Assembly: GCF_024223415.1 (NCBI RefSeq)
Contig: NZ_CP100500.1
Source of the DNA: Escherichia coli
GTDB lineage: Bacteria > Pseudomonadota > Gammaproteobacteria > Enterobacterales > Enterobacteriaceae
Length of the DNA: 64,000 bases
Strand: one strand, 5' to 3'
Shown: positions 12,248 to 12,630 of the stretch, piece after piece
Numbering within the stretch: position 1 is the stretch's first letter
How the letters are laid out: each line of letters starts with the position of its first letter
The notes under the pieces: model-generated
What the model saw: the letters and a program-made list of their open reading frames with translations, nothing else
Told to the model about the DNA's origin: nothing
Databases searched by the model: none
Position numbers and translations under genes: made by a program

Positions 12248-12536
12248 TGTATCTTATATTGTGATATCGGTGCTGCTGCTGTTATTTTTTGTTGTATTTG
12301 TGACGAATGGTTAAGAATAAAACATGAGTTGGTGATTATCAGGACAGGTTGCTTGTATATGAAGATAACAAAGGCGGCATTTATTTTTGCGCTGTCAGTG
12401 TGGAGTGTTGCTGTGATATGTCTTTTATTATTTGTACTGGTTGTTCTGGGATAGCTATAGTGGAATTATTATTTTTTTAAGACTATGGTTTATATTTTTA
12501 TTCGGCAATATTTCTGTAAACAATTAAATATCAGAA

Positions 12537-12566
12537 AGGCGTGTTGTATGCGTGAACACGCCTGAG
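12537..12566 (-). terminator. Putative terminator downstream of the dinI-like gene
   Basis: Inverted repeat ggcgtgtt / aacacgcc followed on the minus strand by a T-rich stretch. Confidence 0.35.
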
Positions 12567-12630
12567 TATGTATACAGAGATTGTTAATTTGGAGAGAATA
12601 ATTACAGTTGTTATTTATTTGACGTCCTGA

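Follow-up and report, generated by a model that had tools for sequence, protein, structure and literature searches.

The window, as we call the whole stretch of 64,000 nucleotides that was analyzed, is Escherichia coli DNA, and the interval studied here belongs to the right end of a lambdoid prophage that is integrated beside yfhH. Tail fiber genes are followed there by an adhesin gene, the gene for a 151-amino-acid (151-aa) regulator, a 383-bp spacer, and a convergent dinI-like gene, after which the host genes begin (Table 1). The adhesin is named "YadA-like family protein" by PGAP, and its last 80 aa are 70 to 72% identical to the adhesins of Eib-type loci. The hairpin in the gap between adhesin and regulator sits at a position equivalent to that of the stem_loops annotated in the P-Eib GenBank records. 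An earlier, sequence-only reading of this DNA had described the dinI-like gene as SOS regulated, which is borne out by two LexA boxes upstream of it, at 12893-12912 (16 of 20 consensus positions) and 12921-12940 (15 of 20), both of them contained in a promoter-like TTGACA-N18-AAAAAT at 12944-12915. A weaker LexA-like site lies at 12560-12579, downstream of both short open reading frames (ORFs) of the spacer region, and neither a promoter scan nor a reading of the sequence found a convincing promoter for it to control. The hairpin that is likely the dinI terminator folds at -15.2 kcal/mol (z=-3.1) and is followed on the minus strand by a U-rich run. The same reading had drawn attention to two short ORFs between the regulator and dinI as possible membrane peptides, and we confirmed the coordinates and sequences of both.

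Table 1. Features of the adhesin-regulator-dinI interval, numbered by position in the window
Feature	Position	Strand	Details
Eib/YadA-like trimeric autotransporter adhesin	10322..11731	+	First gene of the module; Pfam YadA_anchor, E=1e-16
GC-rich perfect hairpin, adhesin/regulator gap	11754..11774	+	10-nt perfect inverted repeat
151-aa regulator with C-terminal LuxR/GerE (sigma-70 region 4-like) HTH	11792..12247	+	Pfam Sigma70_r4_2, E=2e-7; phrog_6585, E=3e-4
Upstream hydrophobic ORF	12237..12314	+	25 codons from GTG 12237; 17 codons from GTG 12261 (12261-12314)
Conserved 3' tail of the adhesin-regulator module	12248..12466		Right homology boundary at 12466, 12 nt past the ORF31 stop
Shine-Dalgarno-like AGGACAGG upstream of ORF31	12341..12348	+	Duplex with the 16S 3' end, -5.1 kcal/mol
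ORF31, candidate 31-aa single-pass inner-membrane protein	12359..12454	+	ATG 12359 to TAG 12454; MKITKAAFIFALSVWSVAVICLLLFVLVVLG
AT-rich spacer specific to the prophage/dinI context, includes the dinI 3' UTR	12467..12630		In 22 genomes only, always with the module
Likely intrinsic terminator of dinI	12537..12563	-	9-bp stem AGGCGUGUU/AACACGCCU, then UUUCUGAUAUUU on the minus strand
DinI-like gene	12631..12879	-	Pfam DinI, E=2e-19; convergent with the module

ORF31 begins with MKITK, with lysines at positions 2 and 5, and continues with 26 uncharged residues. T makes up 41% of the plus strand of the spacer, G 23%, and C 10%, and because this strand is T rich and C poor, all three of its frames read as hydrophobic. 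An ATG ORF of at least 31 codons arises in 48% of dinucleotide shuffles of the spacer (P~0.48), so the length of ORF31 is uninformative. Both observations speak for a reading in which the two short ORFs arose by chance in a T/G-rich, C-poor 3' untranslated tail, with the resemblance of ORF31 to the ORF-60 proteins described below being a composition effect of hydrophobic helices. The GRAVY values of spurious ORFs in the window point the same way, the runner-up (2.05) being an ORF within the adhesin gene and an overlapping ORF reaching 2.01. ORF31 itself, at 2.26, ranks first in hydrophobicity among the window's 363 ATG ORFs of 20 to 60 aa. However, its own bases when shuffled gave a GRAVY of only 0.94 +/- 0.43 (P~0.001), and none of 20,000 such shuffles was both stop free and as hydrophobic; T occupies codon position 2 in 19 of the 31 codons. 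The hydrophobicity of ORF31 is therefore frame specific and goes beyond composition, which argues against the chance reading.

The duplex that the Shine-Dalgarno (SD)-like motif of ORF31 can form is stronger than that of 89% of all ATGs in the window and of 64% of the starts of long ORFs. A promoter scan found no plus-strand promoter-like site upstream of either ORF31 or the upstream GTG ORF. PGAP annotates ORF31 neither in the window nor in the related genome copies checked, and gene callers predict it in more than 200 assemblies. A protein search of 1.8 billion representatives with ORF31 returned its own cluster and no further homologue, so that no relative lies between 94% identity and the twilight zone. 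A search with the translation of the fused tail likewise found only its own cluster, and Pfam gave only a weak, irrelevant match to Doppel for ORF31. The missing PGAP call and the absence of homologues beyond the cluster count in favor of chance.

The upstream ORF has two possible starts. GTG 12237 overlaps the regulator stop and is preceded, 6 nt upstream, by a GGGGG run (dG -8.6 kcal/mol) that sits in the final codons of the regulator; GTG 12261 is without an SD (dG +0.9 kcal/mol). In the shuffle test the GRAVY of the 25-codon form (2.05) gave P=0.11 and that of the 17-codon form P=0.03, and no similarity of the upstream ORF to ORF31 or to the ORF-60 family was seen (P=0.44 and 0.82). NCBIfam and Pfam yielded no relevant match. 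Neither form has a counterpart in the relatives described below, because the gap between regulator and small ORF is only -4 to 57 nt there. The upstream ORF is probably a chance by-product of T/G-rich sequence, and coupled translation of the 25-aa peptide is conceivable.

A block spanning 10960-12466, which comprises the C-terminal half of the adhesin gene, the regulator, and the 219-bp tail, recurs at ~99% identity in 183 of 5426 complete E. coli genomes. The homology of all copies stops at 12466, and beyond it the right flanks fall into two classes, a prophage/dinI flank in 22 genomes and, in the rest, a genomic island with IS256 remnants, often near aerobactin genes. ORF31 accompanies the regulator in the 183 genomes and in both genomic contexts. 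Adjacency to dinI is not essential for the module, given that most copies (about 160 of the 183 genomes) are of the island form without dinI. In all 16 copies that were fetched, ORF31 is intact and has its ATG, except for one disrupted by an insertion sequence; in strain SFE8, an IS3 element is inserted in codon 3. A single codon varies among the 16 loci (V28I), and the protein clusters add F10L, I20M, and L30M. At the same depth of ~99% identity, the regulator shows four nonsynonymous versus one synonymous change. The copy in O111:H8 carries a 3-nt deletion, which is slippage and no evidence of coding because it lies within a (TGC)3 repeat. Selection on the frame of ORF31 itself is not measurable in copies that are ~99% identical, and their variation does not discriminate a coding from a noncoding ORF31. 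Among 5.8 billion proteins, no relatives of the regulator were found between 94% identity and the twilight zone, the only matches at or above 94% being near-identical E. coli proteins. A DNA search of phage and plasmid collections with 11792-12640 and a tblastn search of phages with the regulator both gave no match.

More distant relatives were reached through the DNA of the adhesin anchor, which is better conserved than the regulator or ORF31, and this search added 82 genomes with anchors 60 to 90% identical. The order of adhesin, regulator, and small plus-strand single-pass membrane ORF recurs in these genomes and in contigs from metagenomes or assemblies, the loci with it being L018, L020, L021-L024, L027, L028, and L029. 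The regulator-like gene in the relatives is 156 to 178 aa as called, or 156 to 157 aa when counted from a conserved MKVILATR start. For P-EibA, P-EibC, and P-EibD of ECOR-9 (AF151091, AF151674, AF151675), GenBank annotates orf-156 and orf-60; the P-EibE sequence contains the small ORF as well (L028, 3035-3172), without an annotation in GenBank. orf-156 is phrog_6585 and orf-60 is phrog_9340 (E=1e-25), both of them uncharacterized PHROG families. Literature searches on the peptide string, the eibG context, the eib operon, and eibA/C/D with ECOR-9 returned nothing on the downstream ORFs; the original Eib paper is reportedly that of Sandt & Hill from 2000. The window regulator is 24 to 33% identical to ORF-156-type proteins, has the same HTH, and has in common with them the N-terminal motif I-[IL]-[AM]-T-R-x-x-Y-x-E (ILATRxxYxE); the regulator family profile matches GerE (1FSE, E=3e-6). 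Judged by these features, the window regulator is a remote homologue of ORF-156. A Stx1a phage carries a regulator homologue without adhesin or small ORF, and the pairing of regulator and small ORF is thus not obligatory.

Locus L024 has the layout of the window, including a convergent dinI, and its dinI terminator abuts the stop of the small ORF. A blastn comparison of the window with L024 finds DNA homology in two places only, the adhesin anchor (73%) and dinI together with its promoter (82%). Regulator and small ORF occupy the diverged stretch between these conserved flanks, as if the two had been exchanged together as one unit. The conserved part of ORF-60 is about 42 aa long and consists of a variable, polar, basic N terminus, (K/R)RYTTGAMCFMLFVWLGGVV, and one transmembrane (TM) helix ending at the stop. 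Across five diverged loci, the last 31 codons have a pairwise dN/dS of 0.03 to 0.26 at a pS of 0.45 to 0.75, synonymous sites being near saturation over this stretch, and the first 11 codons are about neutral (pN~pS). ORF-60 is a real gene under strong purifying selection. In four of the loci the small ORF starts with an ATG, and each of these starts has a purine-rich SD-like motif ahead of it (GAAGGTG, GGAGA, GGGAGA, and CAGGGG); the start in L020 is less clear. The small ORF follows the regulator at 49 to 57 nt or overlaps it (-4), its ATG overlapping the regulator stop in L021-23.

The arrangement in the relatives bears on a reading in which the tail stems from a regulator that was once longer and had a C-terminal membrane anchor, the tail being either its relic or an extension reached by read-through or frameshifting. 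ORF31 does lie in the frame of the regulator, and 69 open codons follow the regulator TAA, leaving 12248-12454 free of stops, for which our own calculation from base composition gives an estimate of P~0.004; the other two frames contain five to seven stops. One assembly encodes a 220-aa fusion (P0006) by way of G5>G4 and T6>T7. However, in the ORF-60 family the small gene stands apart from the regulator, in another frame and with an SD and ATG of its own. Every copy of the module has the TAA (context TAAT), and a sense codon at its position occurs in none of several hundred sequences. The fusion depends on altered lengths of two homopolymers in one long-contig assembly, changes of the kind that sequencing errors typically produce. 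We rejected this reading, as relic or as extension, on the basis of the separate sister gene and of these two changes, and we consider it extremely unlikely.

ORF31 is certainly the positional counterpart of ORF-60, being co-oriented with the regulator directly downstream of it, behind an Eib/YadA-like adhesin, and it has a basic N terminus followed by one predicted TM helix that runs to the C terminus. Aligned without gaps at the C terminus, ORF31 is 27 to 37% identical to five ORF-60 members and shares with them T4, A7, F10, L12, V14, W15, V19, L22, V28, and L30. The identities summed over the five members amount to 45 versus 14.4 +/- 6.7 in composition-preserving shuffles (P=1.4e-4), and the BLOSUM62 sum is 194 versus -53 +/- 49 (z of about 5). 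Taking the best of 17 to 28 registers still gave P=3.6e-4 to 4.5e-4, with a sharp peak at register 0. The same register was found by hhalign, at 35% identity over 26 columns (P=1.9e-4), with a probability of only 48%. The controls (ORF25, ORF17, and two spurious hydrophobic ORFs of the window) gave P=0.34 to 0.85 in the same test. By hmmsearch against the family, ORF31 scored 4.1 bits, a marginal value that 3.3% of shuffles reach and that counts toward chance, and hmmscan of ORF31 against PHROGs did not report phrog_9340 at E<=10. Of the invariant 13-position motif G-A-M-C-F-M-L-F-V-W-L-G-G, ORF31 (AAFIFALSVWSVA) keeps only A, F, L, V, and W, and the family's GAMCFMLFVWLGG is cut to F..L.VW. 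These alignments suggest that ORF31 is a probable, strongly diverged homologue of ORF-60/phrog_9340, as diverged as its regulator.

Against a chance origin, the similarity to the family survives composition-preserving shuffles, occurs in one register only, and is absent in the control ORFs, and the position of ORF31 matches that of a demonstrably selected gene. We consider chance an unlikely explanation for ORF31. The earlier suggestion that both short ORFs may equally be due to chance fits the upstream GTG ORF, which has neither a counterpart nor a frame signal, but not ORF31, with its frame-specific hydrophobicity and conserved counterpart. The description as a small membrane peptide is supported for ORF31. 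The support comes from a check that the sequence-only reading had proposed, conservation of the peptide frame in related prophages, where the positional counterpart is under selection and ORF31 aligns to it significantly; the near-identical copies have no power in this respect.

A homologue of ORF-60 could also be a decaying remnant that is neither functional nor expressed here. The N-terminal extension is gone from ORF31, as is most of the invariant motif, its SD is weaker and more distant, its gap to the regulator is longer, and its disruption by an insertion sequence is tolerated in one strain. On the other hand, the frame is intact with its ATG in every undisrupted copy seen, and the regulator is just as diverged and still intact. 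The N-terminal extension is neutral in the sister family as well, and its absence from ORF31 may therefore be of no consequence. We regard decay as quite unlikely.

The sequence-only reading had also likened the short ORFs to type I toxins. In such a reading, ORF31 or the upstream ORF would be a toxin that an antisense RNA restrains, with a possible tie to the SOS response by way of dinI. ORF31 is indeed a small, very hydrophobic single-helix peptide, the only promoter-like site on the minus strand, matching 9 of 12 positions, lies at 12363-12335, and the module is convergent with an SOS gene and has the LexA-like site at 12560-12579 downstream. Yet Pfam and NCBIfam gave no match to Hok, Ldr, TisB, Ibs, ShoB, DinQ, or any other described toxin family, and no Rfam small RNA was found in window positions 9000-16000 (E<=1) or in six related loci. 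Over 12230-12500, neither strand folds better than its shuffles: the antisense strand shows neither structure (z=+1.55) nor a terminator, and the plus strand (z=-0.23) offers no structured 5' leader. Promoter-like matches are fewer than in shuffles (3 versus 4.5), and ORF31 has neither a promoter of its own nor a LexA box upstream. The small gene of the relatives is operonic with the regulator or overlaps it, and most copies of the module do not lie beside dinI. PADLOC defense models gave no match. The toxin label is not supported by these in silico tests, and we consider a toxin very unlikely.

The explanation that we favor, and that is probably correct, is that ORF31 encodes a diverged small membrane protein, the third cistron of an Eib adhesin module and a homologue of ORF-60. 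A mobile module of three genes, for an Eib-type adhesin, a regulator of the LuxR/GerE type, and the small membrane protein, would then have its conserved 3' end in the 219 bp at 12248-12466. ORF31 would be transcribed together with the regulator, which we infer from the lack of a promoter-like site in front of it, and translated from its own ATG with the AGGACAGG Shine-Dalgarno. The product is predicted to span the inner membrane with one helix, and by the positive-inside rule its lysines K2 and K5 would face the cytoplasm. As to its role, we tentatively suggest that, provided the gene is real, ORF31 may act in the membrane as an accessory or modulator, together with the neighboring regulator or the adhesin, rather than as a toxin. 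A further idea, which we hold to be possible but doubtful, is that regulator and peptide form a co-evolving two-part switch, in which the peptide would tether or modulate the regulator, or couple it to a host membrane sensor, and so control Eib expression. Exchange would move the pair as a single cassette flanked by the adhesin anchor and dinI, and the 151-aa regulator and ORF31 would make up a second, previously unrecognized allelic type of this switch.

Eib adhesins contribute to the ability of pathogenic E. coli to resist serum, bind immunoglobulins, and adhere in a chain-like manner, and to our knowledge their regulation is poorly understood. A gene for a small membrane protein appears to be a constant third component of Eib modules that is unannotated in RefSeq. 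Annotation frequently overlooks the small regulatory proteins of the enterobacterial inner membrane. ORF31 would provide a concrete gene for studies of Eib expression, and it would add to the under-annotated small membrane proteins of prophage accessory cassettes.

ORF31 is not a new kind of system, and its presumed family is already listed as ORF-60 in the P-Eib GenBank records. The type I toxins of E. coli (TisB, DinQ, IbsC, ShoB, Hok, Ldr, and ZorO) are short, very hydrophobic single-helix peptides, and TisB and DinQ belong to the SOS regulon. ORF31 is likewise short, very hydrophobic, and single helix, but it differs from them in having no sequence relation, antisense RNA gene, long structured leader, or LexA box. 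MgrB, SafA (of the safA-ydeO operon), AcrZ, MgtS, and YohP are proteins of 27 to 65 aa with one TM helix, often cotranscribed with a regulator or with the system that they modulate. ORF31 is without similarity to any NCBIfam or Pfam small-protein model but falls within their size class and has one TM helix. Compared with ORF-60, ORF31 is shorter (31 aa versus a core of ~42 aa), lacks the polar, basic N-terminal extension, lies farther from its regulator (111 nt versus -4 to 57 nt), and has an SD that is weaker and further from the start than in the family. Even so, the two share a basic N terminus, one TM helix, and a stop directly after the helix, and ORF31 occupies the equivalent slot and strand, after an ORF-156-type regulator in an Eib module that closes a lambdoid prophage, with a convergent dinI downstream as in some ORF-60 loci.

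We compared window positions 11728-12635 with positions 1633-2418 of L024, two prophages of identical gene order that includes the convergent dinI. DNA homology was retained in the flanks, at 73% in the adhesin anchor and 82% in dinI, and was absent over the regulator and the small ORF. The locus is a mosaic, and this pattern of homology kept on both sides and lost between them suggests that the regulator and the small ORF were swapped as one unit. The N-terminal part of the adhesin is variable, in contrast to the region 10960-12466, which forms a single block of approximately 99% identity in 183 genomes and runs from the C-terminal half of the adhesin through the regulator to the tail that follows its stop codon. 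The block was found in prophages and also on a genomic island, where it lies near iucA with IS256, ISL3, and IS1 remnants; in O111:H8, it adjoins an integrase and IncQ-like rep genes.

The regulator and ORF31, the candidate 31-amino-acid (aa) membrane protein at 12359-12454, share one frame, in which 69 codons past the regulator TAA are free of stops (window 12245-12454), and the other two forward frames contain five to seven stops over the same interval. We judged this common frame to be coincidental, given that the sister gene of ORF31, ORF-60 of the P-Eib prophages, sits in a different frame. In GCA_028598215.1, changes in two homopolymer runs join the regulator, the frame of the upstream GTG ORF, and ORF31 into an annotated 220-aa protein (P0006), which is probably the product of a homopolymer sequencing error. 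A +1 shift at the G run alone would add a hydrophobic C-terminal tail to the regulator.

Further variation was observed across the block. Strain SFE8 (L004 5138-6468) carries an IS3-family element after codon 3 of ORF31 (window 12361-12367), where the flanking alignments overlap by an apparent 7 nt, as well as an IS4/IS421 element between the adhesin and the regulator. The (TGC)3 run at 12272-12280, inside the upstream ORF, is one unit shorter in O111:H8 7-58 72A (L003). The adhesin itself ranges from 372 to 548 aa among strains, and the direct repeats in its coiled-coil region (10960-11064, 11050-11163, and 11142-11247, matching one another at 86-99%) are a likely substrate for this length variation.

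Features of the locus and of related loci
Feature	Position	Strand	Sequence	Remark
Direct repeats, adhesin coiled-coil region	10960-11250			Roughly 100 bp, internal
Perfect 10-bp GC-rich hairpin	11754-11774		TCCCGGGGGA / TCCCCCGGGA	Past adhesin stop
Homopolymer run G5	12226-12230			G4 in GCA_028598215.1 (L016 2501-3163)
Homopolymer run T6	12285-12290			T7 in GCA_028598215.1 (L016 2501-3163)
Third LexA-box-like site	12560-12579		GCCTGAGTATGTATACAGAG	13/20 consensus matches; CTG and CAG cores intact
LexA box of dinI, tandem	12893-12912			16/20
LexA box of dinI, tandem	12921-12940			15/20
dinI promoter-like site	12944-12915	-
ORF-60-type gene, unannotated	L018 3305-3487
ORF-60-type gene, unannotated	L020 3286-3450

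At the adhesin-regulator junction, a perfect TATAAT hexamer (11775-11780) directly follows the hairpin, and the regulator ATG lies just 11 nt further on. Stem-loops are annotated at the equivalent position in the P-Eib GenBank records. On the other side of the module, the dinI promoter has one of the tandem LexA boxes on either side of its -10 region, an arrangement that L024 keeps. When CTG-N10-CAG sites were ranked over the whole 64-kb window, the third LexA-box-like site came directly behind these two operator boxes, and 14 of 16 positions are common to it and the box at 12895-12910. It lies within the dinI 3' region and overlaps the end of the terminator hairpin; we looked for a convincing promoter that this site could control and found none.

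The ORF-60-type gene is conserved and under clear purifying selection despite its absence from some annotations. It was left out of the GenBank record of P-EibE (AF151676; L028 3035-3172) and of the RefSeq (PGAP) annotations of NCTC9112 and S19-651 (L018 and L020 in the table).

The Stx1a-converting phage LC744181 (L030 3001-3543) encodes a 180-aa homologue of the P-Eib regulator ORF-156 with a C-terminal extension, accompanied in that locus by neither an adhesin nor a small membrane ORF; the homologue is placed near the end of Stx1a phages, and part of the gene is matched by many Stx phages. A third module type was found in L017 and L019, on an island adjoining mscS. It starts with a YadA-like adhesin and a 68-70-aa ORF, followed by a LuxR-type homologue of 158 aa. 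The next gene differs between the two loci, encoding an HTH regulator in L017 and a hypothetical protein in L019, and the last in order encodes a YqaE/Pmp3 membrane protein of 62 aa. These modules are another pairing of such regulators with a small membrane protein, in this case YqaE/Pmp3.
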